Source: Vicinamibacterales bacterium (GTDB lineage: Bacteria > Acidobacteriota > Vicinamibacteria > Vicinamibacterales > UBA8438). Taken from it: a DNA stretch of 64,000 nucleotides. The translations under genes and the position numbers were made by a program. Under the pieces are notes generated by a model, which did no database searches, had not been told where the DNA came from, and saw nothing but the letters and a program-made list of their open reading frames with translations. The stretch is taken from the NCBI GenBank assembly GCA_965204675.1, contig OZ242003.1:3392375-3456374 (forward strand). The letters are read 5' to 3'. Of this stretch, positions 3 to 44,957 are shown in pieces. Each line of letters begins with the position of its first letter. The first letter of the stretch is position 1.

Positions 3-1016
3 CGCGGGCTCGTCCGCAACACCATCGACGCGGGGACGTGCGACGTCATCTTCGGGGTTCCCGAGGGTCTCGACTTCGTCCTCTGGACGAAGCCGTACTA
101 CCGCTCGGCCTACGTCATGGCCTACCGCGCCGACCGGGGCTACGACTTCCGGTCGCTGGACGCGCCGGCGCTGAGCCGGCTTCGCATCGGCGTCCACGTC
201 AACACGCCGCCCGAGGAGAGCCTCGCGCGGCGCGGCCTGCTCGACAACGTCTCGACCTACTCGCTGTTCTTCGATCCGCGCGGCGACCGCGACCGGCCCC
301 GGAAGCTGCTCGACGACCTGGTGGCGGGTACGGTGGACGTCGCCGTCGCGTGGGGGCCCCTGGCGGGCTACGCCGCCACGACGTCGAGCGCGCCGCTCGA
401 GCTGGTCTCGCTGGAGGATGAACCGGGGGTGCCGCTGTCCTTCGACATCTCGATGGGCGTCGCGAAGGGCAACGAGGCGCTCAAGGTCCGGCTCGAGGCG
501 GCTATCGACCGGCGGCAGGCCGAGATCCTGGCGATTCTGGAGGAGTACGGCGTGCCGCTCGTCCCCGCCGGCGGGGGAGCCGGCGCCGCGAACCCGGACG
601 GGGTTCCGATTCAGGATATCGAGAGCGAGCCCGAGACGCCTGCCGGCGGCGGACCCGGTGCCGCGAACCCGGACGCCGACCCGCCGCCGCCGGCCGTGGC
701 GCCGGCGGCGGCACTGAAGCTGAACCCGTTCACGGGGAACGCGGACATGGCCGCGGAGGGCCGGACGCTGTACTTCCAGGTCGGCTGCCAGGGCTGTCAC
801 GGCGGCGGGGGCGGCGGCGGGATGGCCACCTCGGTGATCGACGACGCGTGGACGTTCGGCAGCGACGACGAGGTGCTGTTCAGGCTCATCAAGGGCGAGG
901 TTCCCGAGCAGACCATGCCGACCGTCTACAGCGTGCTCGAGGACGACGAGGTCTGGAAGATCCTGGCGTTCATCCGGTCGGTCTACGCCGGCGACCCCGG
1001 CCGGATCGACTGGTAG
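3..1016 (+). CDS. Periplasmic substrate-binding (MoxJ-like, quinoprotein-dehydrogenase-associated) domain fused to a C-terminal c-type cytochrome; 5' end outside window
   Basis: The frame is open from the window edge (RGLVRNTIDAGTCDVIFGVPEG...) into ORF 117..1016. It has an SBP-like body, a Pro/Ala/Gly linker and one CxxCH (CQGCH) with a downstream Met ligand region (EQTMPTVY). Confidence 0.7.
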   Translation, partial: RGLVRNTIDAGTCDVIFGVPEGLDFVLWTKPYYRSAYVMAYRADRGYDFRSLDAPALSRLRIGVHVNTPPEESLARRGLLDNVSTYSLFFDPRGDRDRPRKLLDDLVAGTVDVAVAWGPLAGYAATTSSAPLELVSLEDEPGVPLSFDISMGVAKGNEALKVRLEAAIDRRQAEILAILEEYGVPLVPAGGGAGAANPDGVPIQDIESEPETPAGGGPGAANPDADPPPPAVAPAAALKLNPFTGNADMAAEGRTLYFQVGCQGCHGGGGGGGMATSVIDDAWTFGSDDEVLFRLIKGEVPEQTMPTVYSVLEDDEVWKILAFIRSVYAGDPGRIDW

Positions 1017-3697: not shown

Positions 3698-3709
3698 TTG
3701 GTGACCCTC

Positions 3710-4699
3710 ATGACGAACCTCGCGAAGCGCAACATCGACCGTGAATCGGAAGGAAGCGGGGCTGGATTCCCAGCCGTCCGCCGGGCGACGGCTGCCATGC
3801 TGTGCGCCGGCGCGCTCGCGGGAGCGTTCGTCCTCACCGCACGCGCCCAACCGTCGCGCACCGTGGCCGACGGGGTGTACACCTCCGGGCAGGCGGCGCG
3901 GGGCGCGGAGGTCTACCGGGCGCAGTGCGTGACCTGCCACGGCGAGGCGCTCGAGGGCAGCGTCGGCCCACCGCTGGCCGGAGACGGATTCCTGTCGGTC
4001 TGGAGCGCACTGCCGTTGGTGGAGCTCGTCGACAAGATCCACAACACCATGCCCCTCCAGGCGACGGCGCCGCTCTCGCGGCAGGAGTCGATCGACCTCA
4101 CCGCCTACGTCCTCGAGGCCGGCGCGTTTCCGGCCGGAGCCGCGGAGCTGTCCGACGCCGCGCTGGCCGACATTGCGCTCCCCACGGTGGCGACCGCTTC
4201 CGCGTCCGCCGGCGGCGGGGACCTCTCGGTCGCGCCCATCGCCAACCTCGCCCAGTTGATGCGGGCCATCGCCTTCCCCGCCTCGAACATCGTCTTCAAC
4301 GTGCAGATCAAGGACCCCGCGGACGACGTGCCGCCGCCGACGGCGGCCCGGTCCTTCGACTTCGTCGAGTGGGGGTCGACGGTCTATCCGGGCTGGGAGG
4401 CCATCGACCTCGCGGCGCTGGCCATCGCCGAGTCCGCGCCCCTCTTCCTCGTGCCGGGGCGCCGGTGCGAGAACGGCCGGCCGGTGCCCGTCGACCGGGC
4501 CGACTGGCGGGAGTACACCGAGGCGGTCGTCGAGGCGGGGCGGGTCGCCTACCGGGCGTCGCAGTCGAGGAGCGTCGACGCCGTCATCGCGGCCACCGAC
4601 CAGCTCAACGAGGCCTGCGCGAGCTGCCACGAGGTCTATCGCGACGTGGGCGCCGAGGGGCGCGGGGTGGGGGCCGACCGCTGCCGGCAGGAGCCCTGA
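3710..4699 (+). CDS. Di-heme c-type cytochrome (N-terminal class I domain, C-terminal cytochrome c'-like CxxCH)
   Basis: Signal peptide (AGALAGAFVLTARAQP), CVTCH near the N-terminus and CASCH 20 residues from the C-terminus. TTG 3698 and GTG 3701 are alternative starts. Confidence 0.7.
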   Translation: MTNLAKRNIDRESEGSGAGFPAVRRATAAMLCAGALAGAFVLTARAQPSRTVADGVYTSGQAARGAEVYRAQCVTCHGEALEGSVGPPLAGDGFLSVWSALPLVELVDKIHNTMPLQATAPLSRQESIDLTAYVLEAGAFPAGAAELSDAALADIALPTVATASASAGGGDLSVAPIANLAQLMRAIAFPASNIVFNVQIKDPADDVPPPTAARSFDFVEWGSTVYPGWEAIDLAALAIAESAPLFLVPGRRCENGRPVPVDRADWREYTEAVVEAGRVAYRASQSRSVDAVIAATDQLNEACASCHEVYRDVGAEGRGVGADRCRQEP

Positions 4700-6125: not shown

Positions 6126-6725
6126 TCAGCGCAGGTGCCAGGACGCCAGCGCGACGGCCCAGAGGGCGAATGCGGCGAGGCCGGGTGCCCTCGGCCGCGG
6201 GATGGCGAGGGGCGCGACCATGGCGAGGCCGCACGCCAGGAACAACGCGGGTGCGAGCCACGGCCATGACGGCGCCGGCCACAGCAGGTACGTGGACCAG
6301 AGCAGCGCCGCGGCCGGGGACGGGAGCCCGACGAAGCGCGAGTCGTCCGCTTCCACGTTGTAGAAGCCCAGCCGGGTGACGACCGCGCCCAGGTACGCGA
6401 ACGCGCTTGCCCACCAGATGGCCGCGGCCGGCCCGCCGGCCGGGGGCGACGCCGCCGCGGCCGCCGCCACCGGGGCCACGCCGAACGCGCAGACGTCGAC
6501 CAGGCTGTCGAGTTCGCGGCCCACCCGGCGCTGCCGCGGCGAGCGGTGGAAGCAGCGCGCGAACCGGCCGTCGAACGTGTCGAGCAGCGCGGCGAGGGCC
6601 AGCCAGCCGCCCGCGGCCGCCGCCGCGCCCGAGCCGAGCCCCGCCGCCACCGCCGCGAGCGCGGCCGCGAGCGAGCCGTAGGTGAGGAGGTTCGCGACGT
6701 GCAGGTCGTGGATCGGCGCCCTCAT
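6126..6725 (-). CDS. CDP-alcohol phosphatidyltransferase family protein (last gene of lipid operon)
   Basis: Signature D-x2-DG-x2-AR...G-x3-D-x3-D is present as DTFDGRFARCF...GRELDSLVD, and the protein is multi-TM. Its ATG (6725..6723) overlaps the upstream stop (ATGA). Confidence 0.8.
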   Translation of the reverse strand: MRAPIHDLHVANLLTYGSLAAALAAVAAGLGSGAAAAAGGWLALAALLDTFDGRFARCFHRSPRQRRVGRELDSLVDVCAFGVAPVAAAAAASPPAGGPAAAIWWASAFAYLGAVVTRLGFYNVEADDSRFVGLPSPAAALLWSTYLLWPAPSWPWLAPALFLACGLAMVAPLAIPRPRAPGLAAFALWAVALASWHLR

Positions 6726-9700
6726 GATCCGTTGCCTTCCCCGCGGTCCGCGGCAGGACCCGGCGTCGCGCCGGGGCCGGCGCATCGCGGGTCGAAGGCG
6801 GCGGAGTCTTCCGCCACGGGCGGCCAGGCCCCGAAGAGGTCGTGGAGCCGCCGCCACGTTCGCACGATTCGCGGCAGGAACCGCAGGGGCCGGACGCGGT
6901 CGATCATCGCGTAGAACATCAACCGGTTGACGAGCAGGTCCGCCAGCGCGGCGCCGAATCCCGCTCTCCAGGCGCAGGGGTCCAGCCGCGCGCCGCCGGC
7001 GGCGGCCAGCGCGGCCCGATGCCGCTCGACGTACCGGGCCGCCTCGCCCCGGCGCACGCCGGGGTCGAGGACGAAGCAGAGGAAGTGGGCGAGGTCGCAC
7101 TGCGGGGCCCCGACCGTCGCGAGCTCCCAGTCGTAGGCGCAGAGCCGCGCGGACGCTCCGGCGCCGCGAATGGCGGCGTTCCGCGGGCTGAAGTCGTTGT
7201 GGATGAGGGTGCGCGCCGCCGTTTCGAGGCGGGGCCACCACGTCCCGAGCGAGTCGACGAGGGCGCGGTGGGTCCGAACGAGGGCCGGGCCGGCCCATTC
7301 GGCGAGTCGGGGCGCGGCGTGATCGGCCAGCGCGCGCCACAGGGGCGTCATCTCCACCATGCTCCGGGACGTGGCGACGTGGCCGATCCAGGGCCGGTTC
7401 CGAAGGTTGTCCTCCCGCCCGAGCCAGACCGCGTGGATCTCGGCGAGGCCGTCGACGGCGGCGCCCACGCGGTCGAGCGTCCAAACCGTCGGGTCGTCCG
7501 TCGCGTCGAGGAGGACATCGCCGTCGAGCCGTTCCAGGACGAGGCCCCATTCCCGGCGGGCGTCGTCGCGCCACGTGCCGTAGCAGACGGGCGTGTGACG
7601 CCGCAGGCGCTCGTCCGGCTCGGCGTAGAGGGCCAGCTCGCGGAGATGGGCCCCGCGCAGCCCGATGCGCTCCCGGAAGCGGCGCACCGCGCGCCCCAGG
7701 CCGGCGTCGCAGGTGTCCGCCATCGCCTCGGCGACCTCGATCAGCTCGCGGTCGGCCGGCTTGACCTTGGTCACGACGTCGAGCGGCCGCACGCTGCCCC
7801 GGCCGGCGACGTCGAGGCGGTAGCGGGACAGGCCCGTGCGTCCCCGGCCGCGCCAGCCGCCGAGCTCGGCGATGACGCTGTGCTCGGCGCCGTGCGCGTA
7901 GCGGGTCGCCCCGGTCACCGCGAGCGAGTCGTCGCCGAAGTGCCGTCGCAGCATCGGCTCGAAGCGGGCGCGATCGGGGTCGGCCGGCGGCGCCGGCGGG
8001 CTTGCCGAGGGTCGACTGGACGCGGGCCGGTTTGCCACGGGTCGGTTGGCCGCGGGTCGTTTGGCCGATAGTGGGTTGGTTGCCGTTCGATTGGCCGCCG
8101 TTCGATGGGCCGCCGGACGGTTGGCCGCCGGCCGGGGGCCGCGCCGCGGAGGCGGGAGGAAGCCGGCCGCCACGTACTCGTCGAAGTAGCGCCCGAGCAG
8201 GCCGGCGTCGAGCCGGTGGAAATCGAGACCGGCTTCCGCCAGGAGCGCCTGCGTCCGCGTGCTTCGCGGCGCGCTGCTGCGCGCCTCCTGGTACAGCTCG
8301 GGCACGGCGGTCCCGTCCGGCCGGCGCCTCAGGAAGAACCCGCGCAACCGGTGCAGGGCGTGGTCGGGCCGCGCCGCGTCCCGCGCGAGCTGTTCGGCCC
8401 AGTGGTCGTAGGGCGCGAGACGCACGGGATAGCCGTAGAGGTTCATCCAGAGCACGCACTCGCGCCAACGACGCGCCTGCCGCGCGCTCTCGTGGAACGT
8501 GGCGACCCCGTGGGAGTCTGCGCGGTGGAACGGCGCGGACTCCTGGAGGGTTGGTTGGGCGCCCGGCGGAGGCGTCAGGCGACGATGGGCGGGCTGGGGC
8601 GCGGTCGCCGACAGGTGGACGATGGCCCGCGCCGCCTGGTCGACGGGGACCGCGTCGATCCGCCAGTCGAGGTCGGGCGCGGTGCCCATCCGGATGCATC
8701 CCTTGAAGAGCGAGGACACGAGATCGTCGTGCTTGGAGACGCCGCTGGCGGAGTCGCCGGTGAGCAGGGCCGGCCGGTGTATCGACGCGCGCAGCCCGCG
8801 CGCCCGCGCCTGGCGCACCAGGGCCTCGGCGACGCACTTGCTCTGCGCGTACCCGAGCGGCAGCCCCTCCAGGCGCCCGAAGAGGTCGTCGTCCTCGGCG
8901 ACGAGCCGCGGCCCGCCCACGGCGTGGCAGACCGAGAGGCTCGAGACGAAGTGGAAGGCCTTGGGCCGGCCCCGGCACGCCAGGCGGAGCAGCTCGCGCG
9001 TGGCGACGACGTTGGCGGCGCGCAGGGCGCCGTACGGCGAGACCCAGTTGACGTCGGCCGCAGCGTGGTAGACGGTGTCGACGGTCGATGCGATCGCCGC
9101 GCGCGCGCCGCCGGCGAGGCCGAGTCCCGGCTGCGACAGGTCCCCGGTCACGGTGCGGATGCGGCGGCCGAACGCGTCGTCCCAGAGGCGGTAGCGTTCG
9201 AGGCTCCGGCGCACGCGCCGCGACGCGACATCGGCGTCGTCGACGCGCACGACGTCGGCGTCGCCGGTCCGTACGAGACACAGGACCTCCGCGCCGGTCT
9301 CCGTCAGCAGCGCCCTGAGCAGGTGCGCGCCGAGAAAGCCCGTGGCGCCCGTGAGCAGGACGCGCTCGCGCGATGGCGCGGGCGCGGCTCCGGGACGGCG
9401 TCCGCTTCGACATGGGCCGGGCGGAAGGCGCTCGCGCGACTGAGCGGGCGCGGCCTCGGGACGGATGTCGGGCGGCAGCACGCCGTCGTTCCGCATCAGG
9501 TCGATGGCCCGGTCGTCGTCCCGGCGCCGCGCGGGTTGCTCGCCGCTCTCCAGTCGCCGGACCAGCGCGTCGACGCTCGGATGGTCGGTCAGGAGCTCGT
9601 CGGACAGCGGCCGGCGGAAGGCGTCCTCCAGCTCGACGCCGAGCTCGACCGAGCGCAGCGAGTCGAGACCGTAGAGCGCCAGCGGCTCGCGCGGGTCGAT

Positions 9701-9793
9701 CTCGGCCGGCGCGAGCCCGAGGCAGCCCGCGACGACCTCGGTCACGCGGTCGCGCACCCCTTGGGCCACGGGTGAGGTCGGGTTCAGGGACAT
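6722..9793 (-). CDS. Tri-domain protein: acyl carrier (PP-binding) - thioester reductase (NAD-binding) - APH/choline-kinase-like phosphotransferase
   Basis: - ACP: LYGLDSLRSVEL.
- Reductase: LLTGATGFLGAHLL and YAQSKCVAE.
- Linker: 7x pentapeptide (PAANR).
- Kinase: LIHNDFSPRNA and AYDWELA.
- ATG at 9793. Confidence 0.8.
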   Translation of the reverse strand: MSLNPTSPVAQGVRDRVTEVVAGCLGLAPAEIDPREPLALYGLDSLRSVELGVELEDAFRRPLSDELLTDHPSVDALVRRLESGEQPARRRDDDRAIDLMRNDGVLPPDIRPEAAPAQSRERLPPGPCRSGRRPGAAPAPSRERVLLTGATGFLGAHLLRALLTETGAEVLCLVRTGDADVVRVDDADVASRRVRRSLERYRLWDDAFGRRIRTVTGDLSQPGLGLAGGARAAIASTVDTVYHAAADVNWVSPYGALRAANVVATRELLRLACRGRPKAFHFVSSLSVCHAVGGPRLVAEDDDLFGRLEGLPLGYAQSKCVAEALVRQARARGLRASIHRPALLTGDSASGVSKHDDLVSSLFKGCIRMGTAPDLDWRIDAVPVDQAARAIVHLSATAPQPAHRRLTPPPGAQPTLQESAPFHRADSHGVATFHESARQARRWRECVLWMNLYGYPVRLAPYDHWAEQLARDAARPDHALHRLRGFFLRRRPDGTAVPELYQEARSSAPRSTRTQALLAEAGLDFHRLDAGLLGRYFDEYVAAGFLPPPRRGPRPAANRPAAHRTAANRTATNPLSAKRPAANRPVANRPASSRPSASPPAPPADPDRARFEPMLRRHFGDDSLAVTGATRYAHGAEHSVIAELGGWRGRGRTGLSRYRLDVAGRGSVRPLDVVTKVKPADRELIEVAEAMADTCDAGLGRAVRRFRERIGLRGAHLRELALYAEPDERLRRHTPVCYGTWRDDARREWGLVLERLDGDVLLDATDDPTVWTLDRVGAAVDGLAEIHAVWLGREDNLRNRPWIGHVATSRSMVEMTPLWRALADHAAPRLAEWAGPALVRTHRALVDSLGTWWPRLETAARTLIHNDFSPRNAAIRGAGASARLCAYDWELATVGAPQCDLAHFLCFVLDPGVRRGEAARYVERHRAALAAAGGARLDPCAWRAGFGAALADLLVNRLMFYAMIDRVRPLRFLPRIVRTWRRLHDLFGAWPPVAEDSAAFDPRCAGPGATPGPAADRGEGNGS
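8027..8131 (-). repeat. In-frame 15-nt tandem repeat x7 (PAANR-like pentapeptide linker between reductase and kinase domains)
   Basis: Units of the type GGTTGGCCGCNGGNN on the plus strand; translated as RPAANRPAAHRTAANRTATNPLSAKRPAANRPVANRP. Confidence 0.8.
8513..8596 (-). repeat. ~85-nt hairpin repeat element (family E) inserted in-frame in the reductase domain
   Basis: GGAGTCTGCGCGGTGGAACGGCGCGGACTCC...GGTTGGTTGGGCGCCCGGCGGAG...GACGATGGGCGGGC matches the copies at 50486, 50570, 51205 and 59591. It is translated as AHRRLTPPPGAQPTLQESAPFHRADSHG. Confidence 0.8.
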
Positions 9794-11721
9794 GCCGCCT
9801 CCTGTGCGCCCGATGCCGCGAGCCCGACCGGCGGCCCCGCCGCGGGGGCGGCGCGCGCCTCGTCGGCGGGTGGTCCCGCCGCTGGGGCGCGCGCCACGCC
9901 GGCGGGCGGCTGACGCCAGATCGCGATGGCCTCGAGGTTCCCCGCCAGCAGGGCGTCCCGACACGCGAAGCGCTTCACCTTGCCGCTGGTCGTCTTCTCG
10001 ACGCCGCCCGGCGGGACCAGCGTGACCGCGCTCAACTGGACCCCGTGGGCCTCGGTGACGCCGCTTCGAATGGCGTCGATCGCCGCCTGCGCGGCGGCCG
10101 GGGACCCGAGCTCGCGGGGGTCGACCTCCGCGACGAGGGCGATCCGGTCCCCCGAGACGCAGCGGTCCGCCGCGAACGCGGCCGCGCAACCGGGCCGCAC
10201 GGCGCGGTGCCGGCCCTCGGCGGTCCGCTCCAGGTCCTGGGGGTAGTGCTTCGCCCCCCGGACGATCAGCAGGTCCTTCAGGCGGCCCGTGACGCGCACG
10301 CCGTCGCCGTCGACGGCGCCGAGGTCTCCAGTCCGGAGGAAGGGGCCCCGGCCGTCGGCCGTGCGCGCCGCGAACGTGCGCGCCGACTGCGCGGGCCGGT
10401 TCCAGTAGCCGGCGGCGACGCCCGGGCCGCCGACCCAGAGCTCGCCGACCTCGCCGTCCGCGCGCCGGCGGCCGCTCCGGGGATCGACGGCGATGACCGT
10501 GGTCCCCGGGTCGGGGCGGCCGCAGGAGACGCCGGGCTCGTGACCCCCGCCGGGCTCGTGGCCGCCGCCGGGCTCGTGGCCGCCGCCGGGCTCGTGGCCG
10601 CTGCCGGGCTCGTGCGCTGGCGGTCGGGGCGCGCTTGCGCGGTAGCGGCCGCTCGTCACGAGCAGCGTCGCCTCGGCCAGCCCGTAGCACGGCCGGAACG
10701 CGCTCGGCGCGAAGCCGCTGTCCGCGAACGCGGCGGCGAACCGCTCGAGGGTGCTTCGCCGGACCGGCTCGGCGCCGTTGTAGGCGTCGCGCCAATTGCG
10801 GAGATCGAGGGCGGCGCGCTCGTCGACCGCGATACGCCGGACGCACAGGTCGTACGCGAAGTTCGGGCCGCCGCTACGGGTCGCCCGGTACCGGGTGATC
10901 GCCTTCAGCCACCGGACCGGCCTCTGCAGGAACGCGGTCGGCGACATCAGGTAGGCGGGACACCCGCTGAATACGGGTTGCAGCACCCCGTCGATCAGCC
11001 CCATGTCGTGGACGACGGGCAGCCACGACACCGACACCGTCGAGCTGTCGTTCCCGGCCTGGCGGAAGGCGCAGGCGAGGTTGTGCAGCAGGTTGGCGTG
11101 GGTGACCATCACGCCCCGCGGGGCCGCCGTCGAGCCGGAGGTGTACTGCAGAAAGGCGAGGGTGCGGCCGGCCGCCCCGGGGTCGCGCCAGGCCCGTGCG
11201 GCGGACGCGTCGAGGGCGTCGGTCGCCACCCAGGCCGCCGCCCCGTCCCGGGCACGCCGCCCGCCCGAGGGCCTCGAGAGGGCCGGCGCGGCCCCCGCCG
11301 CCACCGCCCGTGCCCAACGCTCGATGGTCCTGGTCGGGCCCAGCACGACTTCCGGCCGCGCGTCGTCCACCACCGCGACGGCCCGCGCGAGGTTGCGGTC
11401 GGGGGACCGCCACCGCGGCGGGAAGACGGGGACCGCCGCGACCCGCGCATACAGGCACCCGAAGAACGCCGCGACGAAATCGAGCCCCGGCGGGTACATC
11501 AGCAGCGCCCTCGCCCCCGGCCGTGCGCGGACCCGGAGGACCGCGGCGACCGTGCGGCTCCGGCGGTCGAGCTCGGCATAGGTGACCGCGTCGCTCTCGT
11601 GCTCGCCGTCGCGGAGGAAGACGAACGCGTCGTCGTTCGGCTGCACGCGCGCCCGGAACCGCAGGAGCTCGACGAGCGACCGGCCGCTGAAGGCGGTTCC
11701 GCGCGGCGTTTCGGAGGCCAT
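9784..11721 (-). CDS. Fatty acyl-AMP ligase (FAAL-type adenylating enzyme)
   Basis: Motifs: LQYTSGSTAAPRGVMVTH, YGLAEATL, TGDLG, LIVRGAKHYPQD and the terminal KTTSGKVKR. ATG at 11721. Confidence 0.85.
   Translation of the reverse strand: MASETPRGTAFSGRSLVELLRFRARVQPNDDAFVFLRDGEHESDAVTYAELDRRSRTVAAVLRVRARPGARALLMYPPGLDFVAAFFGCLYARVAAVPVFPPRWRSPDRNLARAVAVVDDARPEVVLGPTRTIERWARAVAAGAAPALSRPSGGRRARDGAAAWVATDALDASAARAWRDPGAAGRTLAFLQYTSGSTAAPRGVMVTHANLLHNLACAFRQAGNDSSTVSVSWLPVVHDMGLIDGVLQPVFSGCPAYLMSPTAFLQRPVRWLKAITRYRATRSGGPNFAYDLCVRRIAVDERAALDLRNWRDAYNGAEPVRRSTLERFAAAFADSGFAPSAFRPCYGLAEATLLVTSGRYRASAPRPPAHEPGSGHEPGGGHEPGGGHEPGGGHEPGVSCGRPDPGTTVIAVDPRSGRRRADGEVGELWVGGPGVAAGYWNRPAQSARTFAARTADGRGPFLRTGDLGAVDGDGVRVTGRLKDLLIVRGAKHYPQDLERTAEGRHRAVRPGCAAAFAADRCVSGDRIALVAEVDPRELGSPAAAQAAIDAIRSGVTEAHGVQLSAVTLVPPGGVEKTTSGKVKRFACRDALLAGNLEAIAIWRQPPAGVARAPAAGPPADEARAAPAAGPPVGLAASGAQEAACP
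10531..10614 (-). repeat. In-frame 18-nt tandem repeat (~4.7 copies) encoding (HEPGGG)n inside the FAAL
   Basis: gccgggctcgtggccgcc units; protein AHEPGSGHEPGGGHEPGGGHEPGGGHEPG. Confidence 0.85.
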
Positions 11722-11726
11722 GGGCG

Positions 11727-12569
11727 TCACCACCCCCGGGCTCCGTCGCCCACCGGCGCGGCCGCGCCGACGACGGTCGGGCGGGGCGCGGGCCGCTCGG
11801 GCCGCTCGCCGCGCCGCTCGCGGTGCCATTCGATGAACCTCCGGCGGACCGCCCGCGTGTTCGCGGCGAGATCGGCGAGCCGCCAGTCGGCGGTGTCGAT
11901 GGCCGGCATGACGTGGACCCGCACCGTGCCCGGCCGGGCGTCGTAGCCGCGGCCCGGATCGATCTCCGGGGGTATCTCGAGGTAGAGCGGCACGATTGGC
12001 GCCCCGAGGCTGGTGGCGAGGTGGAACGCGCCCTTGTTGAAGCGGCCGATGCCGCCGGACGTGATTCGGGCCCCCTCGGGACTCAGATAGACGGATTCGC
12101 CGGACCGGCGCAGGGCGCGGTCCGCCCGCTGGAAGATCCGGACCCGCTCGGCCGGCCGGGTCTGGGGCACGGTGAAGAAGGTGCCCATCAGTTGCGCGAT
12201 GAAGCCCAGGGGCAACAGCTTCCGGAGCTCCCCCGCCAGGAAGAAGCGGGTGTCGGGGAGGCCCAGCGCCACCAGGACGAACAGGTCGATCGTCGACGAG
12301 TGGTTCGAGACGTACACCGTCTGCGCGGCCGGGAACGGCCGGTCGCGGTGGACCACCACCCGCAGGCCCCACACGCGGAGCACCGCGCGCGCCGCGAGGG
12401 TCGCCGCGCGCGCGTAGAGGCGGCGCGCCCGGAACAGCGTCAGGCAGGCGACGAGCACGAGGGCGAGGGCGACCCCGCTCAGGAGCGCGGCGGTGACCGC
12501 CGCCAACGCCGCGAGACGTACCCGGCGGGGGCGCCTCGCCGGCAGGATGGTCCGCGCGGGATCGTTCAT
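11727..12569 (-). CDS. Lysophospholipid/glycerol-phosphate acyltransferase (PlsC family)
   Basis: N-terminal TM segment, NHSSTID (HX4D) and SPEGAR motifs. Its ATG overlaps the upstream stop (ATGA at 12566-12569). Confidence 0.8.
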   Translation of the reverse strand: MNDPARTILPARRPRRVRLAALAAVTAALLSGVALALVLVACLTLFRARRLYARAATLAARAVLRVWGLRVVVHRDRPFPAAQTVYVSNHSSTIDLFVLVALGLPDTRFFLAGELRKLLPLGFIAQLMGTFFTVPQTRPAERVRIFQRADRALRRSGESVYLSPEGARITSGGIGRFNKGAFHLATSLGAPIVPLYLEIPPEIDPGRGYDARPGTVRVHVMPAIDTADWRLADLAANTRAVRRRFIEWHRERRGERPERPAPRPTVVGAAAPVGDGARGW

Positions 12570-13576
12570 GGCCGCCTCCGGCAGACGACGGTCTGCATCG
12601 CGAGGTTGCATCGCCTGACCAGCGACAGCACCGGCTGCAGCATGAGCTGCCCGGCGAAGTACGGGTAGATGGCGCGGCGCATGTTCAGCCCGCGCCCCTT
12701 CAGCACGCGGAACGCGACGCCGCAGAACAGGTAGAAGTACGGCGGAAACGCGCCGTAGGGCAGGTAGTCGACGACCTCGAGATCGGCCCTCTCGACCATT
12801 CGCAGCAGGGCCGCCCGGTCGTAGAGCGCGGTGTGCTGGGGCGCCTGCAGGCCCGGCCACCGGTCCCCGAACAGGCGGAACGTCAGGCTGTCGAGCCGCG
12901 GCACCTCGATGACCAGCCGCCCCTCGTCCTTGAGGGCGCGGCGCGCGGAGATCAGCGACGGCAGGGGCGCGTAGTCGTGCTCGAGGAAGTGCCACATCGT
13001 GACGAGGTCGAACCGGCCGGCGCCCACGTCCTGCTCGTGGAACGGGCCGCAGTGGAACTCGACCCCGCGCAGCGCGGGGCGGTCGGCGAGGTCGACGAAG
13101 TCGACGCCGACCCCGGCCGCGCCGTGCCGGGCCCGGAGGCCGGCGAGGAACGTGCCGGCGCCGCAGCCCACGTCGAGCACCGTGCTCGACGCGTCGAGGG
13201 CCAGGTACCGGCGGCAGATCCGCAGCTTCTCGCGGTCGACGGCCCCCATCGCCCACCGGAACAGGGGAGCCATCCAGCCCCAGTCGGAGCCCGGCCGGTG
13301 GGCCAGGTAGTCCTCGTCGTAGTAGTCCTTGACGCGCTCGATGGTCAGCCGGGGCGTCTGGTACACGAGGCCGCAGGCCCGGCAGCACCGGAACGTGAAG
13401 CGGCCGGGGCGCCCCGTCAGGTCGTCCTCGGCGGTGATGAAGGGGTCCGACGCGGCGTGGCCGCAGCCGCAGCAGGCCACGGCCTCGAAGTCCCGACCGT
13501 CCCCGGGATCGTTGCCGACGCGCGGCCGGGGCCGCGCATCGACGGCGGAATCGATCGCGATCGTCGTGGAGTTCAT
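12566..13576 (-). CDS. Class I SAM-dependent methyltransferase with N-terminal Cys4 zinc-ribbon
   Basis: CCGCG...CCRACG followed by VLDVGCGAGTF (motif I) and LVIEVP. ATG at 13576 is preceded by GGAGAGCGGAG. Confidence 0.75.
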   Translation of the reverse strand: MNSTTIAIDSAVDARPRPRVGNDPGDGRDFEAVACCGCGHAASDPFITAEDDLTGRPGRFTFRCCRACGLVYQTPRLTIERVKDYYDEDYLAHRPGSDWGWMAPLFRWAMGAVDREKLRICRRYLALDASSTVLDVGCGAGTFLAGLRARHGAAGVGVDFVDLADRPALRGVEFHCGPFHEQDVGAGRFDLVTMWHFLEHDYAPLPSLISARRALKDEGRLVIEVPRLDSLTFRLFGDRWPGLQAPQHTALYDRAALLRMVERADLEVVDYLPYGAFPPYFYLFCGVAFRVLKGRGLNMRRAIYPYFAGQLMLQPVLSLVRRCNLAMQTVVCRRRP

Positions 13577-13740
13577 GGCAGTGCTCCGCTCTCCGTGCGG
13601 CGCCCATCGCCGGACGGGCGCGTTGGCTTCGTCGTGGAGTTCATGGCAGTGCTCCGCTCTCCGTGCGGCGTCCATCGGCGGACGGCGTGGGTTGGCGGCT
13701 CCGAGGTGTCGTTCGTGGCGGTGCTCCGCTCTCCGCAGGC
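13561..13740 (-). repeat. Tandem duplication (68 nt, 72 nt, ~2.5 copies) of the RBS + ATGA stop/start junction upstream of the methyltransferase
   Basis: ttcatggcagtgctccgctctccgtgcggcg occurs at 13572 and 13640, with a degenerate third copy at 13712. Confidence 0.85.
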
Positions 13741-14282
13741 CGGTTGTGATGCACCTCGTACCCGATCGCCGCCGCGTACATCACCGCCATCGCGAGGGCC
13801 AGCGGAGGCGTCCGCGGCGCACCGGCGGCCGCCGCGACGAGGGCGACGAAGACGGGATACTTGGCCAGCAGCACGCCGAAGCGCCAGAGGCGGTCGGACA
13901 CGCGGGCGCGCAGCCGGTAGGCCGCGAGGAAGGCCACGTCCAGAACGGCGAGTCCGGCCGCGGCGACCGCGGACCGCGCCGCCAGGACGACGAGGTTACC
14001 GACCCCGATGGCGACGAGCGCGCGCCGGAACGGCGCGGGCGGCACGACGACCAGAATCCGTTCGGGATGGGTCGCCCGGTCCCGGTCGCGATCTTCGAGG
14101 TCGTCCCAGAGCCGGAACTGCAGCAGGAGGAGGGCGGCGAGGCCGGCCGCCGCCGCGAGCCGTGCCGGCGTCGGCTCCGCGCCGGCCGCCCACAGCGCCA
14201 GCCCCACGTGCAGCGCAGTGGCGGGGGCGAACACGGCGGGGCGGAACCGCTGGGCGAGGTACGCGGCGAACCGGCCGGTCAT
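13641..14282 (-). CDS. Short polytopic membrane protein with UbiA-superfamily first Asp-rich motif
   Basis: About 6 predicted TM helices. DLEDRDRDRATHPER matches DxxDRxxDxxxxPxR. Its ATG overlaps the upstream stop (ATGA 14279-14282). The last ~30 codons are repeat-derived, so the true C-terminus is uncertain. Confidence 0.6.
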   Translation of the reverse strand: MTGRFAAYLAQRFRPAVFAPATALHVGLALWAAGAEPTPARLAAAAGLAALLLLQFRLWDDLEDRDRDRATHPERILVVVPPAPFRRALVAIGVGNLVVLAARSAVAAAGLAVLDVAFLAAYRLRARVSDRLWRFGVLLAKYPVFVALVAAAAGAPRTPPLALAMAVMYAAAIGYEVHHNRPAESGAPPRTTPRSRQPTPSADGRRTESGALP

Positions 14283-17035
14283 GCGGCGCCTCGCTCGTCC
14301 TCGGGCGCCGCGGCGCTCTCCGCCGTACCCGGGTCGATCGTGCAGACGCCGCGGTCGCCGTCCACGGTGACGCGCTGGCCGGACGCGATGCGGCCGGTCG
14401 CGTTCTCGACCCCGACGACGCAGGGCAGGCCGAACTCGCGCGCGACGATCGCCCCGTGCGAGAGCAGCCCGCCGCGCTCGATCACCAGCCCCGACACCAG
14501 GCCGAACACCGGCGCCCATCCGGGGTCGGTCTGGCGGGTCACCAGCACGTCGCCGCCGCGCAGGCGGGCGGCGTCGCGCACGTCGCCGAGCACCGCGGCG
14601 GGGCCCGACGCGGCGCCGCCGCACGCGCCCGTCCCGCGCAGCGTCGAGGGGCGGGGACACGGCTCGTCGCCCTGGTCCTCCCGTCCGCGCGGGATCGATC
14701 CGAAACCCGGGGCGAGGTACTCCCCCGCCGGCAGGGCGAGCGTCGCGGGGGGGCGCATGGCCCCCAGCGCCGCGTGCTCCCGCCGCCGTAGGGCGACGAG
14801 GTCGGGAACGCCGTACGGGAACATCGCGCGGCCCGCCCCGAGCGCCTCGATCTCCTGCCAGGTCAGCATGAAGACGTCGTCCGGCTTCGCGAGGCGCCCG
14901 TCGGCGGCCAGGCGCCGGCCGATGGCCAGCGCGACCCGCCGGAGGCGCGTGTAGAGCAGGGCCTGCTTCAGGCGGGCCCGCTCGCGGTAGGCGACGCTGG
15001 CCTGCGCCGCGCGCAGCAGCCAGCGCACCGCGAGGGCCAGGGCCGGGGACCGCCGGGCCAGGGTCCTCGTCACCCGGGACGTCTCCTCCACGCGCCCGGC
15101 CGCCTGCCGCGCCATCACCGCCGCCGGCGGCTCTCCGTCGCTGGCCGCGTACTGCCGGAGCAGCTCGATGACCGGGGCCGGGTCCTCCTGGAGGCTCGGC
15201 AAGGTCAGCATCAGCTCGGCCGACGAGCGGAACCCCCAGTCCTCCAGGAACCGGTCGAGCTCGCGCCGGAACCCCGCGAACCGGTCGTCGCCGCGGACCG
15301 CTTCCAGGATCGCCGGCGTCTCGCCGCTCGCGAACAGCCGGTCCAGCCGCGCGTCCGAGCGGATGAGGCGCGAGAGCGCCCAGAGGCGCAGGGGCGGCGT
15401 CGCCGACGGCACGCCGGGCAGCGCGCGCAGCAGCCGGTTGTGCAGCCCCCCGCGCGCGTCGACGCGCCGGAGCGCGCGCTGCAGCAGCGCGTAGCAGACC
15501 ATCGCCGCCGCGTCGGCGAGCGAGGCGTCCTTCCAGCCGTGGAAGCGGATGTCGAGAAACGACCGGAGATCGTCGAGCAGCCCGCTCGACGAGCGGCGGG
15601 CGAGCCGGTCGGGGTGGGTGCGCGCCGCGAAACGGTCGGCGCGATCCTCGAACGCTTCCAGCCGCCGTCGCAGGAACAGGTACTGCCGGATCGTGCAGGC
15701 CGCCACGCGCAGCAGCTCCGCCGCCTGGCCGACGCGGCCGCGGCCCTCGCCCCACCGCGTCGCGCCCGGGGGCGGCGGGGCGACGTCGTCCGCCCCCACG
15801 AACTGGTTGAACGCCCGCGCCAGCGGTTCTCCGCACGGCGCCATGCGCAGGACCGCGTGGATGCTCGTCAGGTTGTAGTACAGCCGCCCGCCGTGCACGC
15901 CCACGATCGCCGCCAGCGCCGGGTCCATGGCCGCGACCCGTCGGCGGGAGATGCCGAACGCCAGGGCGAGGTTTCGGAAGTAGTGGTAGTAGCCCGGGGC
16001 CACGAACGAGTAGAGCAGCGGGCAGATCGGGGCCGGGAAGTTCTCGTTGACGTTGGCGTTCGACCAGAGCACGGTGGGCCCGGCGGCGCCGGGCGCGTCA
16101 CCCGTCGCGGTGATCGGCCTCGACTGGAGAATCCAGAGCCGCCCGTCGTCGTCGAAGCTCCACTCGACGTCCTGGGGCGCGCCGAGCTCTCGTTCGAGGC
16201 GGAGGGCCGCGCCGGTCAGGGCGCGGACATCGGCCGCGGACAGGAGACCGCCGGGCGCCGGGGCCGACCCGGCCGGCGTCCGACCGGCGCGCGACACGAC
16301 CAGGCGCTCGGGCTCGACGCGCCCCGAGACGAGCCCGTCCGCCAGGCCGCGGCAGCACTCGATCAGGAGATCGTCACCCGACGCGCCGCCCGCGCTGGCC
16401 GGCGCGCGGGTGAAGAGCACGCCCGACACGCGGGCGGACACCTGCCGCTGGATGATGACGGCCATTCCGCCGAGCCCGGCTCGGCGCGCGGCGCGGTAGT
16501 GGAGCGACCGCTCGGACCAGTACGACGCCCAGCAGGCCCGCACCGCGCGCCGCAACGCTTCCTCCCCGGCGACGTGCAGCACCGAGTCGAACTGGCCCGC
16601 GAACGAGGCCGCGGCGCCGTCCTCTCCGACGGCGGAGCTGCGCACCGCCAACGCCCCCGCGGGCAGCTCTCGCGCGGCCGCGTCGAGCGCCTCGGCGACG
16701 GCGGCCGGCAGCGGGCGGCCCATGACCTGGGCGAGGACGGCCTCGGCGATCTCCCGGCGCCCGGCCGCGTCCGTCGGGTCGGGCCGGCGCTCGAGGGCGG
16801 CCGCGCGGGCGCCGAGCCCGTCCGCGGCCAGGAACCGGCGGAACGCCTCGCAGGTCAGGACGCGGCCCGCCGGCACCGGGAACCCGAGCCCGATCAGCTT
16901 CGCCAGGCTCGACGCCTTGCCGCCCGCCTGCCGCGGGTCGAGGGCCTGCCCGAGCGGGACCATCACGGGAGGTCCCGCGGGTCGGTCCGCCGGCGGGCGG
17001 ACCCGGACGGGCTCGAGCGCCGCCGCCCCCGTCAC
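14279..17035 (-). CDS. PEP-utilising/pyruvate-water-dikinase-like phosphotransferase (N-terminal ATP-grasp PPDK_N, C-terminal swivelling phospho-His domain)
   Basis: GGKASSLAKL, VRSSAVGEDG..SFAGQ and DVEWSFDDDGRLWILQSRPIT at the N-terminus. C-terminal DVLVTRQTDPGWAPVF...GGLLSHGAIVAREFGLP. GTG start. Confidence 0.8.
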   Translation of the reverse strand: MTGAAALEPVRVRPPADRPAGPPVMVPLGQALDPRQAGGKASSLAKLIGLGFPVPAGRVLTCEAFRRFLAADGLGARAAALERRPDPTDAAGRREIAEAVLAQVMGRPLPAAVAEALDAAARELPAGALAVRSSAVGEDGAAASFAGQFDSVLHVAGEEALRRAVRACWASYWSERSLHYRAARRAGLGGMAVIIQRQVSARVSGVLFTRAPASAGGASGDDLLIECCRGLADGLVSGRVEPERLVVSRAGRTPAGSAPAPGGLLSAADVRALTGAALRLERELGAPQDVEWSFDDDGRLWILQSRPITATGDAPGAAGPTVLWSNANVNENFPAPICPLLYSFVAPGYYHYFRNLALAFGISRRRVAAMDPALAAIVGVHGGRLYYNLTSIHAVLRMAPCGEPLARAFNQFVGADDVAPPPPGATRWGEGRGRVGQAAELLRVAACTIRQYLFLRRRLEAFEDRADRFAARTHPDRLARRSSSGLLDDLRSFLDIRFHGWKDASLADAAAMVCYALLQRALRRVDARGGLHNRLLRALPGVPSATPPLRLWALSRLIRSDARLDRLFASGETPAILEAVRGDDRFAGFRRELDRFLEDWGFRSSAELMLTLPSLQEDPAPVIELLRQYAASDGEPPAAVMARQAAGRVEETSRVTRTLARRSPALALAVRWLLRAAQASVAYRERARLKQALLYTRLRRVALAIGRRLAADGRLAKPDDVFMLTWQEIEALGAGRAMFPYGVPDLVALRRREHAALGAMRPPATLALPAGEYLAPGFGSIPRGREDQGDEPCPRPSTLRGTGACGGAASGPAAVLGDVRDAARLRGGDVLVTRQTDPGWAPVFGLVSGLVIERGGLLSHGAIVAREFGLPCVVGVENATGRIASGQRVTVDGDRGVCTIDPGTAESAAAPEDERGAA

Positions 17036-17257
17036 GCCGCCCTCGCTTTCACCCGGAGAAGGAACAGGGCGGCGCTGAACCCCGCGTGCACCAGGGGTTC
17101 GGCGAGCAGGACGAAGAGGCAGACCCGCCAGGACATCGGCACCCCCGTCATGCCGCCCTCGCCTTCACCCGGAGAAGGAACAGGGCGGCGCTGAACCCCG
17201 CGTGCACCAGGGGTCCGGCGAGCAGGACGAAGAGGCAGACCTGCCAGGAGACCGGCA
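17026..17257 (-). repeat. Tandem duplication (2 x 116 nt) of the CarS-like 3' end / dikinase-like start junction
   Basis: Copies at 17026-17141 and 17142-17257 are ~93% identical. One carries GTGACGGGGG and the other ATGACGGGGG. Confidence 0.9.
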
Positions 17258-17741
17258 CCGCCAGCGCCAGCGCCAGCAGCATCCCGGCGGTCGAGTCGAA
17301 CCGGTCCGCGACGAGGAAGACGGCCCGGAGGCGCCGCCCCGCCGCCGCCTCGCCGGGCGCGACGCCGAGCCGGCGCTTGACGAACGAGTTGGGGAGCTCG
17401 CCCGCCATGAAGCCCAGGGCCGCCCAGGCGCCGAGCAGGCCGTACGACGCCGGCGCGAGCGGCCAGAGCCCGGCGGCCGCGAGCCCCGGCCGCGCCGACA
17501 CGAGGGCCGCGAGGGCGGTGAAGCTGACGCCGGTGGCGGGCACCATCACCAGGAAACCGCGGACCGTCTTGTGCGCGCCCAGGATCGGCCGGCCGCCGAG
17601 GGCGCGGCCGCCGTCGAGGGGGACCGCGAAGCGCCGCGAGAGGGGCGCGGCCAGCCACGCGGTGTGCGCGAGGCCGGACAGGGTGAAGCCCGTCACCAGG
17701 AACAGGCCGCACGCCACGGGATCGAGGGCAGGCGCGGTCAT
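17148..17741 (-). CDS. CarS-like (CDP-archaeol synthase family, DUF46) cytidylyltransferase membrane protein
   Basis: GAHKTVRGF and GELPNSFVKRRLGVAPG...ADRFDS match the family motifs (KT.rG; GDl..SFiKRRlG; D.lD). Five TM segments; ATGA overlap at 17738-17741. Confidence 0.7.
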   Translation of the reverse strand: MTAPALDPVACGLFLVTGFTLSGLAHTAWLAAPLSRRFAVPLDGGRALGGRPILGAHKTVRGFLVMVPATGVSFTALAALVSARPGLAAAGLWPLAPASYGLLGAWAALGFMAGELPNSFVKRRLGVAPGEAAAGRRLRAVFLVADRFDSTAGMLLALALAVPVSWQVCLFVLLAGPLVHAGFSAALFLLRVKARAA

Positions 17742-18697
17742 ACGTCGAACCCCGACCGGTCGCGGTTCTGGAACAGGAACACCTCGCCGGGGACCGCGCG
17801 CGCGGCCGGCACCCACGTCGTCCAGCTCACCTCGTTCCGTACCGGGCGCCGGACCTCCGGCAGCCGGTACCCCGGCACCGCGGGATACAGGTGGTGCAGC
17901 TCGTGGGCGTCGAAGTGCAGGAGCATCCTCGACAGCCACCCCGGCAACCGGAGCGACCGCGTGAAGGGGCCCTGGGCCGGCGCGGCGTACGGCTCCACGT
18001 CCCGGCCGCGGCTGAGGTGCATCGGCATGTGGGTGTGCTGGCTGAGGAGGAGGACGTCCTGGACCACGAGGGTCAGGAGCAGCGCCGGCCCCGCGGCGCG
18101 GACGAACGCGGCCGGGCCGAGGGCGACGGCCGCGGCGGCCCAGACCGCGGCCACCGCCGCGGCGTCGACGACGATCGCGCGGGCCTCGGCCGGCTTCGGA
18201 CCGATCAACCGGAACAGCCGGGCCAGGTTCCAGTAGTTGCCCGTCCGGTAGAGGACCGAGAAGATCGGGATCCAGCACCGCCAGCAGACGTTGACGGCGA
18301 GCCGTTCGAAGCGGCCCAGGGGTCGCGGCACGAGGGCCGCGGTGGTCGGGTCGAGGTCCTGCCACCCCGTCCACTTGTGGTGGCGCGCGTGGATCGGCTT
18401 CCAGCAGCGGAACGGGATCAGCGCGAAGAACCCCGCCACCGGGCCGACGGCGTCGTTCAGCCGCCGCGTCCGGAAGAGGGTCCCGTGCCCGCACTCGTGA
18501 AGCAACGCGAACCACTGGAGGAACGCCGCCGCGAGGACCAACTGCCCGGCCGCCCAGGGCAGGGCCGGCTCGCGGGTCGCGAGCCATCCACCGGCGGCGG
18601 TCGCCGCCGCCGCCCAGCCGGTGAACGCCAGGCCCGTCCCGTCGGCGGGGCGGAAGTCCGGAACCGGCGCCGGCTTCTCGATGACCTCGCTGCGCAT
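17738..18697 (-). CDS. Membrane fatty-acid desaturase family protein (first gene of lipid operon)
   Basis: Three His boxes: HECGH, HARHH, HELHH. ATG at 18697; an in-frame TTG at 18706 is also possible. Confidence 0.8.
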   Translation of the reverse strand: MRSEVIEKPAPVPDFRPADGTGLAFTGWAAAATAAGGWLATREPALPWAAGQLVLAAAFLQWFALLHECGHGTLFRTRRLNDAVGPVAGFFALIPFRCWKPIHARHHKWTGWQDLDPTTAALVPRPLGRFERLAVNVCWRCWIPIFSVLYRTGNYWNLARLFRLIGPKPAEARAIVVDAAAVAAVWAAAAVALGPAAFVRAAGPALLLTLVVQDVLLLSQHTHMPMHLSRGRDVEPYAAPAQGPFTRSLRLPGWLSRMLLHFDAHELHHLYPAVPGYRLPEVRRPVRNEVSWTTWVPAARAVPGEVFLFQNRDRSGFDV

Positions 18698-20695: not shown

Positions 20696-20972
20696 CCGGA
20701 CCGAGTCGCGGCGGGCCCTGACGGCGGGCCAGGCCGGCTCCGCAGAACGGCGCGGACGCCTGGAAGGCCGGTTGGGCACCAAGCGGAGGCCGTAGCGCTA
20801 CCTTGCGGTCGCGTTCGGCGACGATTGGGGGCCGGTTCCGGCGCCCGGTGCCGGCCGCGCTCTAGCCTAGTGGTGCGTCACGTTCCAATCTTCGGACACG
20901 GACATGGGTTTACAGCGCGTAATCGTTGACGAATCACATCACCATGCCCGAACATTCAGCCGTGACGCAGCA

Positions 20973-22727: not shown

Positions 22728-22859
22728 ACGCCCTCCAAGCGCTACTCTACACGCGTGCTTGCGGATGGGTAAAGCGGCCTCGCTCCTCCATCGGGCGGCT
22801 TGCCGCGAGGCACGAACGGCGCGGCTGGACGATGGCCGCGACCGTCGAGGCGTCACCGG

Positions 22860-22940
22860 CCGGGCAGCAGACGGGGTCGTGGAACGCCGCGGGCTGCCGG
22901 AGGGCTGGCTGGGCGGCGAGCGGAGCCGCAAGGCGACGCT
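22860..22940. repeat. Diverged intergenic copy of the ~85-nt element (family E)
   Basis: GGGCAGC...GTCGTGGAACGCCGCGGGCTGCCGGAGGGCTGGCTGGGCGGCGAGCGGAGCCGCAAGGCGACG aligns with the reverse complement of the imuB copies. Confidence 0.55.
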
Positions 22941-43994: not shown

Positions 43995-44189
43995 GTGAGC
44001 ATCGACAGGAAGGCCGCTCGGCGCAGGATGACCACGGGCTCGCCGAACGTGCGGCCGCGGGTCGGGCCGCAGACGCCGGGCCGCCCGTCAGGCAGTCGCG
44101 ATGGGAAGCCGCGACTCAGCAGACGAATCGCCCTCGTGCCGGTGCTCGCGTGCGTAGCGTGGCACACCGCCGGGGCCGCCACGCGGGAG

Positions 44190-44320
44190 TTCGATCTCGC
44201 CGCCTTGAGCGACGAACTGTTCAACGTCCCGCTCCGGCTACACCGCGGCGGCCGGGCCATGCAGAAGCTGATTCCGACCTCGCGCGGCGCGGCTCGCGTG
44301 GAGATGGCCGAAGCCGTGGG
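44190..44320 (+). pseudogene. Duplicated fragment of the DUF1800 gene 3' region (direct repeat of 37741-37870)
   Basis: ~80% nucleotide identity to 37741-37870. It encodes FDLAALSDELFN...GRAMQKLIPTSRGAARVEM, compared with FDLAALERDELFN...ARAMQKLIPTPRGAARVDM in the intact gene. Confidence 0.75.
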
Positions 44321-44329
44321 TGACGCGCC

Positions 44330-44614
44330 TCAGTCGGACGTTTCCGCCGCGCGCAGCCGGCCCTCGACGTACCGATGCAGCACGCTGGCAATCAGGGTCT
44401 GGTAGGGAATGCCTTCCGACAGGGCCCGTTTCTTCAGGGCATCGAGGTCCCGGCTGGAAATCCTCACGTTCACGCGGCGGTCCTTTCGGAACGTGGCCGC
44501 CGCGTACTCCCGGTGTTGCTTCATCACCTCGGCCTTGTTCCGGGGCGACCGCAGTTCGTTGCGTTCGAACGCATCCACGATCTCCTGTTCCTCCCTAGTC
44601 AGCCGGGCCATCAT
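44330..44614 (-). CDS. brnA: BrnA/CopG-like type II antitoxin
   Basis: RVNVRISSRDLDALKKRALSEGIPYQTLIASVLHRYVEG. Its start overlaps the toxin stop (ATGA-type overlap at 44611-44614). Confidence 0.75.
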   Translation of the reverse strand: MMARLTREEQEIVDAFERNELRSPRNKAEVMKQHREYAAATFRKDRRVNVRISSRDLDALKKRALSEGIPYQTLIASVLHRYVEGRLRAAETSD

Positions 44615-44810: not shown

Positions 44811-44957
44811 TGGTAGCGGCAACATGAAAAGGGACCCCATGGCCACTTGAAAAGGGACCCCCTGAGCACTCGGAAACAGCGGCCCCTGGCGATGATCGAC
44901 GGGGCGAGACACGGTCGTCTCGTCGACCGAGCCAGGAGGGACGCGGAGGTGATCAGG

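Follow-up and report, generated by a model that had tools for sequence, protein, structure and literature searches.

The window analysed here, a 64,000-nucleotide stretch of contig OZ242003.1 (positions 3,392,375 to 3,456,374) from a Vicinamibacterales bacterium that lives as a sponge symbiont, encodes a protein in which an acyl carrier protein (ACP), a thioester reductase and a kinase of the aminoglycoside phosphotransferase (APH) fold are joined in a single chain. This tri-domain protein is real, conserved and uncharacterised, and the lipid pathway to which its operon points is undescribed. Taking its substrates and products together, all of which we infer, the protein is probably the unit that makes alkyl phosphate at the entry to a dedicated, conserved lipid pathway. 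Phosphorylation of a fatty alcohol is favoured because the kinase is fused to two unrelated thioester reductases and is swapped with a prenol-kinase-like protein in related loci.

Domain architecture and catalytic residues

The gene begins with the ATG at position 9793, which has an AGGAGG ribosome-binding site, and its GC content at third codon positions (GC3) is 0.91. The start overlaps the stop codon of a fatty acyl-AMP ligase (FAAL) gene, and the stop overlaps the ATG of a PssA-like gene. A longer GTG start giving 1374 residues was ruled out due to the GC3 of 0.63 and wrong codon pattern of the 351-codon in-frame upstream extension, which also overlaps the FAAL gene in another frame. Pfam analysis identified a PP-binding domain at residues 15–81 (48 bits, cut-off 20.8), an NAD_binding_4 domain at residues 147–391 (202 bits) and a weak EcKL match at residues 812–929 (E-value 1e-4), while the NCBIfam thioester reductase model TIGR01746 scored 278 bits against a cut-off of 213. 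The kinase domain had no NCBIfam match and no close kinship to characterised aminoglycoside-resistance APH enzymes; its AlphaFold2 model (predicted local distance difference test, pLDDT, of 93) has the bilobal APH/choline-kinase fold. These domains and this fold confirm the fusion of carrier, terminal reductase and phosphotransferase proposed in an earlier sequence-only reading of the DNA. The closest solved structure to the reductase domain is the MxaA reductase domain (E-value 3.8e-65), with carboxylic acid reductase at 7e-23.

An assembly artefact or chimera was rejected on the basis of more than 100 full-length homologs and of contigs from four independent studies that cover the gene. These contigs show no frameshifting indel outside an 84-bp repeat within the reductase region, at which contigs from other copies of the repeat pile up. 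Several studies also contributed sponge or marine metagenome runs in which DNA of the host locus is present.

Conservation was scored on an alignment of 106 full-length proteins, comprising this protein and 105 homologs, among which the catalytic residues of all three domains are 99–100% conserved. The ACP serine, G149/G152/G155 of the reductase GxxGxxG motif and the reductase residues Ser284, Tyr315 and Lys319 are invariant, as are Lys676, Glu719, His865, Asp867, Arg871, Asn872 and Asp900 of the kinase, and Asp888-Trp-Glu is kept in 105 of the 106 proteins. The HNDFSPRN and DWE motifs reported earlier were located at residues 865–872 and 888–890 respectively, and the kinase catalytic residues proved intact on alignment. 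The set expected of the APH superfamily is complete, with the lysine (K676), the helix-C glutamate (E719), the HxDxxxxN motif (H865/D867/N872) and the DxE metal motif (D888/E890) all present, and it is retained in both types of fusion described below. Judged by these residues, the kinase domain looks active.

Exchange of kinase partners and a predicted contact

Eighty genome loci were compared, of which 53 encode a reductase–kinase fusion (R-type) and 23 encode the kinase fused to a domain of the class I 3-hydroxy-3-methylglutaryl-CoA (HMG-CoA) reductase, or HMGR, fold (HMGR-type). The two types form two groups on the kinase tree (Shimodaira-Hasegawa-like approximate likelihood ratio test support of 100); this tree was built with a quick method and midpoint-rooted, and is silent on which fusion came first. 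One protein, encoded within the same operon, has the order FAAL–ACP–HMGR-fold–kinase. A motif scan of the 23 HMGR-fold proteins, some of them truncated or unscored, showed the signature of FcrA, with an acidic residue at Ser684 in all 19 scored, Phe at Leu862 in all 22 scored and the catalytic Glu/Lys/Asp/His kept, a match that concerns motif residues only and not clade placement. FcrA has been shown experimentally to reduce fatty acyl-CoA to the alcohol and fails to reduce HMG-CoA (PMC11948995); the main text of that paper mentions neither a kinase nor a phosphotransferase. No HMG-CoA synthase turned up in four of five genomes with an HMGR-fold–kinase fusion, which together with the FcrA signature disfavours a mevalonate-kinase reading of these relatives. 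FcrA is similar to the present reductase domain as a functional equivalent, and the same kinase family is fused to it in the sister operon, but the two reductases have unrelated folds. One kinase family has thus been joined to two non-homologous reductases for which a common reaction is predicted.

In five reductase loci that lack the kinase, a gene encodes a membrane protein whose motifs, RKxxH among them, resemble those of prenol kinases. RKxxH has been described as the phosphate clamp of prenol kinases (10.1101/2023.07.17.549440), and the replacement protein is putatively prenol-kinase-like. It had no Pfam, NCBIfam or Protein Data Bank (PDB) match, its structure model reached a pLDDT of 49, and a metagenome scan with the version from locus L096 gave no match. 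Counted over loci that are related, so that the numbers describe a pattern and neither independent events nor a statistical test, the APH kinase occurs in 121 loci, the prenol-kinase-like protein in five and both together in none; CarS with the CDP-alcohol transferase (68 loci) and the BtaA-like DUF3419 protein (25 loci) never co-occur; and acyltransferase and GNAT-like genes are also mutually exclusive. The CarS/CDP-transferase and BtaA enzyme types both act on a diradylglycerol backbone. Genes for a UbiA-like protein and for a dikinase like rifampin phosphotransferase (RPH) accompany the kinase in all 34 long R-type loci and in 11 of the 12 long HMGR-type loci, and a desaturase is found in R-type loci only (37 versus 0). 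The constant core is the ligase, the reductase, the alcohol kinase, the RPH-like dikinase and the UbiA-like protein.

When the reductase and kinase were folded as separate chains, the predicted complex scored 0.75 versus 0.51 for the best control, with at least 91% contact agreement between runs and a partner pLDDT of at least 87; among solved complexes 58 of 80 attain the mark used for this score, as do 2 of 110 mismatched pairs. The predicted interface joins the conserved WRECVLW segment (442–459), which lies in the C-terminal subdomain of the reductase, to kinase helices 640–648 and 686–697 and residues 966–968. Two residues of this interface, Trp647 and Arg966, are kept across R-type kinases, but other residues take their place in HMGR-type kinases. 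The earlier suggestion that an alcohol released by the reductase is then phosphorylated gains comparative support from the fusion to two non-homologous reductases, from the exclusivity with the prenol-kinase-like protein and from the predicted contact. The model supports the contact itself and not direct channelling of the alcohol, which is only inferred.

A candidate lipid route and its alternatives

The tri-domain gene lies in a nine-gene operon (Table 1), a context that makes sense of the protein and that the earlier reading did not mention, and the gene order of R-type loci is near constant: desaturase, CarS-like, RPH-like dikinase, UbiA-like, methyltransferase, acyltransferase, FAAL, ACP–reductase–kinase and CDP-alcohol transferase. 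In the dikinase, which most resembles rifampin phosphotransferase, the catalytic His motif is retained. Members of the UbiA-like family have the first Asp-rich motif, and among solved structures their sole relative is the archaeal ether-forming digeranylgeranylglyceryl phosphate (DGGGP) synthase (E-value 1.4e-4). The CarS-like protein passes its Pfam cut-off; the UbiA-like protein and the CDP-alcohol transferase fall under their family-specific cut-offs and are distant homologs. The 97.6% complete host genome gave no match to geranylgeranylglyceryl phosphate (GGGP) synthase (PF01884), with controls matched, and no match to HMG-CoA reductase, so the operon does not represent the archaeal isoprenoid pathway.

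Table 1. Coordinates in the window of the tri-domain gene, its domains and inserts, and the other operon genes
Feature	Position	Strand	Basis
ACP–thioester reductase–APH-fold kinase gene, 1023 aa	6722..9793	-	ORF (open reading frame), domain searches, alignment
ACP domain, residues 15-81; phosphopantetheine Ser45 in GLDSL, invariant	9551..9751	-	Pfam, alignment
Thioester reductase domain, residues ~145-550; GxxGxxG 149-155, Ser284, Tyr315, Lys319	8144..9361	-	NCBIfam, alignment
APH/choline-kinase-fold domain, residues 600-990; Lys676, Lys678, Glu719, His865-x-Asp867-x-x-x-Arg871-Asn872, Asp888-Trp-Glu, Asp900	6824..7996	-	alignment, model
PAANR-like linker of degenerate 15-bp tandem repeats, expanded in this lineage	7997..8134	-	repeat scan, alignment
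Genome-wide 84-bp repeat, in frame and with a 3' hairpin (residues 401-428); lineage-specific	8510..8593	-	genome search, alignment
Membrane fatty acid desaturase (PF00487), first operon gene	17738..18697	-	Pfam
CarS-like (CDP-archaeol synthase family) protein	17148..17741	-	profile match
RPH/phosphoenolpyruvate (PEP)-synthase-like dikinase with catalytic SHG motif	14279..17035	-	Pfam, NCBIfam, motif
Short UbiA-like membrane protein, conserved first Asp-rich motif RLWDDLED	13641..14282	-	weak Pfam match here, clearer in homologs
S-adenosylmethionine-dependent methyltransferase (alternative start 13675)	12566..13576	-	Pfam
PlsC-type acyltransferase (PF01553)	11727..12569	-	Pfam, NCBIfam
FAAL, overlaps start of tri-domain gene	9784..11721	-	Pfam, NCBIfam
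PssA/archaetidylserine-synthase-like CDP-alcohol phosphatidyltransferase, ATGA-coupled to tri-domain gene	6126..6725	-	Pfam, NCBIfam

In the proposed pathway, the adjacent FAAL would adenylate a fatty acid and load it onto Ser45 of the ACP, as in FAAL/ACP biochemistry. The reductase would use NADPH to release a primary fatty alcohol, as its likeness to MxaA and its interchange with FcrA suggest, and the docked kinase would use ATP to convert this alcohol to an alkyl monophosphate. This sequence from ACP loading to alkyl-phosphate formation is considered likely. Following this, the RPH-like dikinase may convert the monophosphate to an alkyl diphosphate and the UbiA-like protein may form an ether by moving the alkyl chain onto a hydroxyl of glycerol(-phosphate). 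The acyltransferase would then add an ester chain, the CarS-like enzyme would form a CDP-lipid, and the PssA-like enzyme would add a head group that the methyltransferase may modify. These downstream steps, from the diphosphate through O-alkylation of the glycerol backbone, acylation and CDP activation to the head group, are proposed tentatively. Taken as a whole, the operon may represent an undescribed ether-glycerolipid route that applies archaeal/prenyl logic to fatty acids, in which a new family of long-chain alcohol kinases docks onto the reductase and modules are interchangeable across many phyla, an interpretation that is possible but still doubtful.

Several observations weigh against this interpretation, in addition to the relatedness of the loci mentioned above. 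The kinase is at most 17% identical to any listed solved structure, and its best PDB sequence match is the kinase domain of ACAD11 (profile E-value 4.8e-6), which acts on hydroxyacyl-CoA. No biochemically characterised member of the tri-domain family was found. The replacement membrane protein is assigned by motifs only. For some clusters with a stand-alone kinase the fetched DNA contains no reductase (L100, L102, L104 and L115), and L110 has neither; these stand-alone kinases show that the reductase–kinase fusion is not obligatory. The UbiA-like protein encoded here has only 213 residues and no second Asp-rich motif. To our knowledge, UbiA enzymes ionise allylic diphosphates, and a saturated alkyl diphosphate as donor would be without precedent.

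The best structural match of the kinase model was 8agy (Z 19.0, root-mean-square deviation 3.9, 287 residues aligned), with many kinases tied, including homoserine, choline, ethanolamine and methylthioribose kinases (Z 17–19). The fold leaves the substrate unnamed because many kinases tie and none exceeds 17% identity, and a protein-atlas search with the kinase domain returned only generic EcKL/APH clusters. Such equal matches, along with the existence of stand-alone and RPH-domain-fused kinases, would fit a kinase that acts on a different compound of the pathway, be it the glycerol acceptor, a monoalkylglycerol or a head-group alcohol, with the fusion serving only to bring enzymes together. 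This is quite unlikely, as the fusions to two unrelated alcohol-producing reductases and the prenol-kinase-like replacement point to a long-chain alcohol, and the kinase is predicted to dock on the reductase C-terminal subdomain. The 25-hydroxysteroid kinase and TvaE are among the top three Foldseek matches of the model, and with ACAD11 as the best sequence match they raise the option that the kinase makes a leaving group on a hydroxyacyl thioester or hydroxy-alcohol for elimination to an alkene or vinyl group, as in ACAD10/11, LvaA, 25-hydroxysteroid kinase and TvaE/LxmK. The ACAD11 match is limited to about 80 residues of the generic HxD...DWE core, the protein contains no acyl-CoA dehydrogenase (ACAD) domain that would place it with ACAD10/11, no lyase, dehydrogenase or hydroxylase partner is conserved, and the desaturase is confined to R-type loci, leaving elimination very unlikely.

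Formation of an ether from the alkyl phosphate was also weighed against a route in which the CarS-like enzyme makes a CDP-alkanol directly from the alkyl phosphate, and attachment of a head group by the PssA-like enzyme follows. This would yield an alkyl-phospho-headgroup lipid of the alkylphosphoserine/-choline type with no ether, and the UbiA-like and RPH-like proteins would act on the acceptor. The operon does contain CarS-like, CDP-alcohol transferase and methyltransferase genes, a phosphatidylserine decarboxylase is encoded elsewhere in the host genome, and the unprecedented UbiA chemistry would be avoided; the kinase is nevertheless tracked more tightly by the UbiA-like and RPH-like genes than by CarS/CDP-transferase, which is replaced by DUF3419 in 25 loci, and this route is unlikely. 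The dikinase also matched RedH at 357 bits and PigC at 295 bits, far short of either cut-off. A PigC/RedH-like role, in which the reductase stops at the aldehyde and the dikinase activates it for condensation to a small-molecule metabolite, would agree with these scores and with a patchy operon distribution like that of specialised metabolism. It is highly improbable, since FcrA, the interchangeable reductase, makes alcohols, the remaining genes encode membrane-lipid enzymes and the kinase would be left with no substrate.

The alkyl-phosphate assignment bears on two questions in the literature. Which bacteria make sponge ether lipids, and by which routes, is still called elusive (bioRxiv 10.64898/2026.06.23.733905), and many FcrA genes have no known downstream use (PMC11948995). 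The tri-domain protein ties these two questions together and offers a soluble, easily assayed entry point. No long-chain alcohol kinase of the APH fold was present among the solved structures searched. If the UbiA step is true, alkyl transfer from a non-prenyl diphosphate would be new chemistry for the UbiA family, and the ether-glycerolipid route, if true, could explain some of the monoalkyl glycerol ethers of sponge holobionts.

Related systems, distribution and repeats

The fusion is a new variation on reductive-release enzymes and the most tractable handle on this undescribed lipid pathway. MxaA and carboxylic acid reductases share the ACP–reductase release of an acyl thioester but have no C-terminal kinase, and the carboxylic acid reductase model (NF041592) scored 97 bits against a cut-off of 1300, which places the protein outside the adenylation–thiolation–reductase enzymes. 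SwfB of the sponge-symbiont swf clusters is a thioester reductase–sulfotransferase of unproven function (PMC3908369). It is likewise from sponge symbionts and bears a C-terminal group transferase for which capping of the released alcohol has been proposed, whereas the present protein carries an APH-fold kinase in place of the sulfotransferase, has its own ACP, is FAAL-fed rather than fed by a type I polyketide synthase (PKS) and sits in a phospholipid-type gene setting with no PKS in the operon; it is not a member of the SwfB group. In the available text of PMC9426513 and bioRxiv 10.64898/2026.06.23.733905, ElbD of Myxococcus xanthus and the sponge elb-like clusters also bring adenylation, carrier, reduction and acyl transfer functions together in a single locus and include Acidobacteriota hosts, and the present cluster is not described there. 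ElbD has a FarA-type reductase with fused adenylation and acyltransferase domains and no kinase. In contrast, the FAAL and acyltransferase here are separate genes, kinase, dikinase, UbiA-like and CarS-like genes are added, and the ACP–reductase–kinase order falls outside the ElbD type. The host genome encodes, outside the window (L182:3978-6986), an ACP–AMP-binding–acyltransferase protein that resembles a split ElbD-like gene.

The proposed chemistry also parallels phytol/prenol salvage, in which an alcohol passes through monophosphate and diphosphate to UbiA transfer (VTE5/FOLK kinase, VTE6 phosphate kinase and a UbiA-family transferase), and the archaeal ether pathway, in which UbiA transfer is followed by CDP activation and head-group addition (DGGGP synthase, CarS and archaetidylserine synthase). 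Unlike either, the route proposed here would use a fatty-acid-derived chain, a soluble APH-fold first kinase and an RPH-like second kinase.

A search with the kinase region returned 211 proteins, nearly all of those listed being ACP–reductase–kinase proteins of about 900 residues, and a profile search with the kinase gave 507 clusters at E-values below 1e-30. The closest relatives of the tri-domain protein are from Vicinamibacterales, and the R-type operon occurs in Acidobacteriota, Planctomycetota, Gemmatimonadota, Nitrospinota and Pseudomonadota. The architecture therefore recurs in several phyla, but no role already assigned to it was found, and a literature search, with most subscription journals outside its reach, found no published description of the fusion or operon. 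The operon is present in 3 of 19 genomes of the genus, host included, and in 4 of 400 genomes sampled from the phylum; because this distribution is patchy, it suggests that the operon makes an accessory lipid and not the housekeeping membrane. The sister HMGR-type operon has the cultured carriers Thalassolituus and Alkalimarinus, which bring lipidomic tests of it within reach. Three Marinacidobacterales loci (L047, L054 and L057, about 6400-11230) encode a four-domain protein of ~1450 residues in which the FAAL is fused to ACP–reductase–kinase. A reduced cluster (L099:8190-12499) has the kinase fused to an Rph_4th domain beside separate PPDK_N and CarS-like genes, with no PEP-utilizer domain listed. 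An HMGR-fold–kinase fusion on a Streptomyces plasmid (L095:8455-11331), with a FAAL nearby and no UbiA-like or dikinase genes, was possibly recruited to specialised metabolism.

The linker between reductase and kinase had been read as seven PAANR repeats, which is not borne out; it consists of about 8–9 degenerate 15-bp units of which only two are exact PAANR. It is 66 residues long against a family median of 26, and the PAANR-type form is found only here, in one 97%-identical relative and, in shorter form, in one 89% relative. A functional role for it was rejected, as it is not conserved across the family. The in-frame repeat insertion noticed earlier in the reductase domain is real and 84 bp long, and is carried by 2 of the 106 full-length proteins (this one and its 97% relative). 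In the 6.77-Mb host genome the element matches 366 places, 259 of them over at least 70 nt, with none for the reversed control, and it is abundant in other members of the genus as well, making it a genus-wide element like repetitive extragenic palindromic (REP) sequences. The number of copies inside long ORFs is uninformative, given the shadow ORFs that arise at 70–77% GC. Compared across the homologs, the linker and the insert are tolerated, lineage-specific additions that are incidental to the mechanism.

Further copies of the 84-bp repeat lie at window positions 50486-50659, 51209-51291, 59595-59674, 22879-22938 and 20745-20790, two of them in tandem. Within the operon, the end of the CarS-like gene is duplicated in tandem over 116 bp (17026-17259); the duplication lies between that gene and the dikinase gene, and the second copy provides the GTG start. 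A 68-bp tandem repeat at the junction of the UbiA-like and methyltransferase genes (13561-13735) creates alternative methyltransferase starts. The FAAL contains a lineage-specific in-frame 18-bp repeat of the GGGHEP type (10530-10614), and the ACP–reductase linker has a short lineage-specific in-frame extension (9398-9442). Elsewhere in the window there are about three copies of a 97-bp tandem repeat (49638-49922) and several 19–24-bp repeats (43793-48146). From their translations, the ORF at 20973-22931 (-) is similar to pyrroloquinoline quinone (PQQ)-dependent dehydrogenases, and those at 3-1016 (+) and 3698-4699 (+) are cytochrome-c-like.

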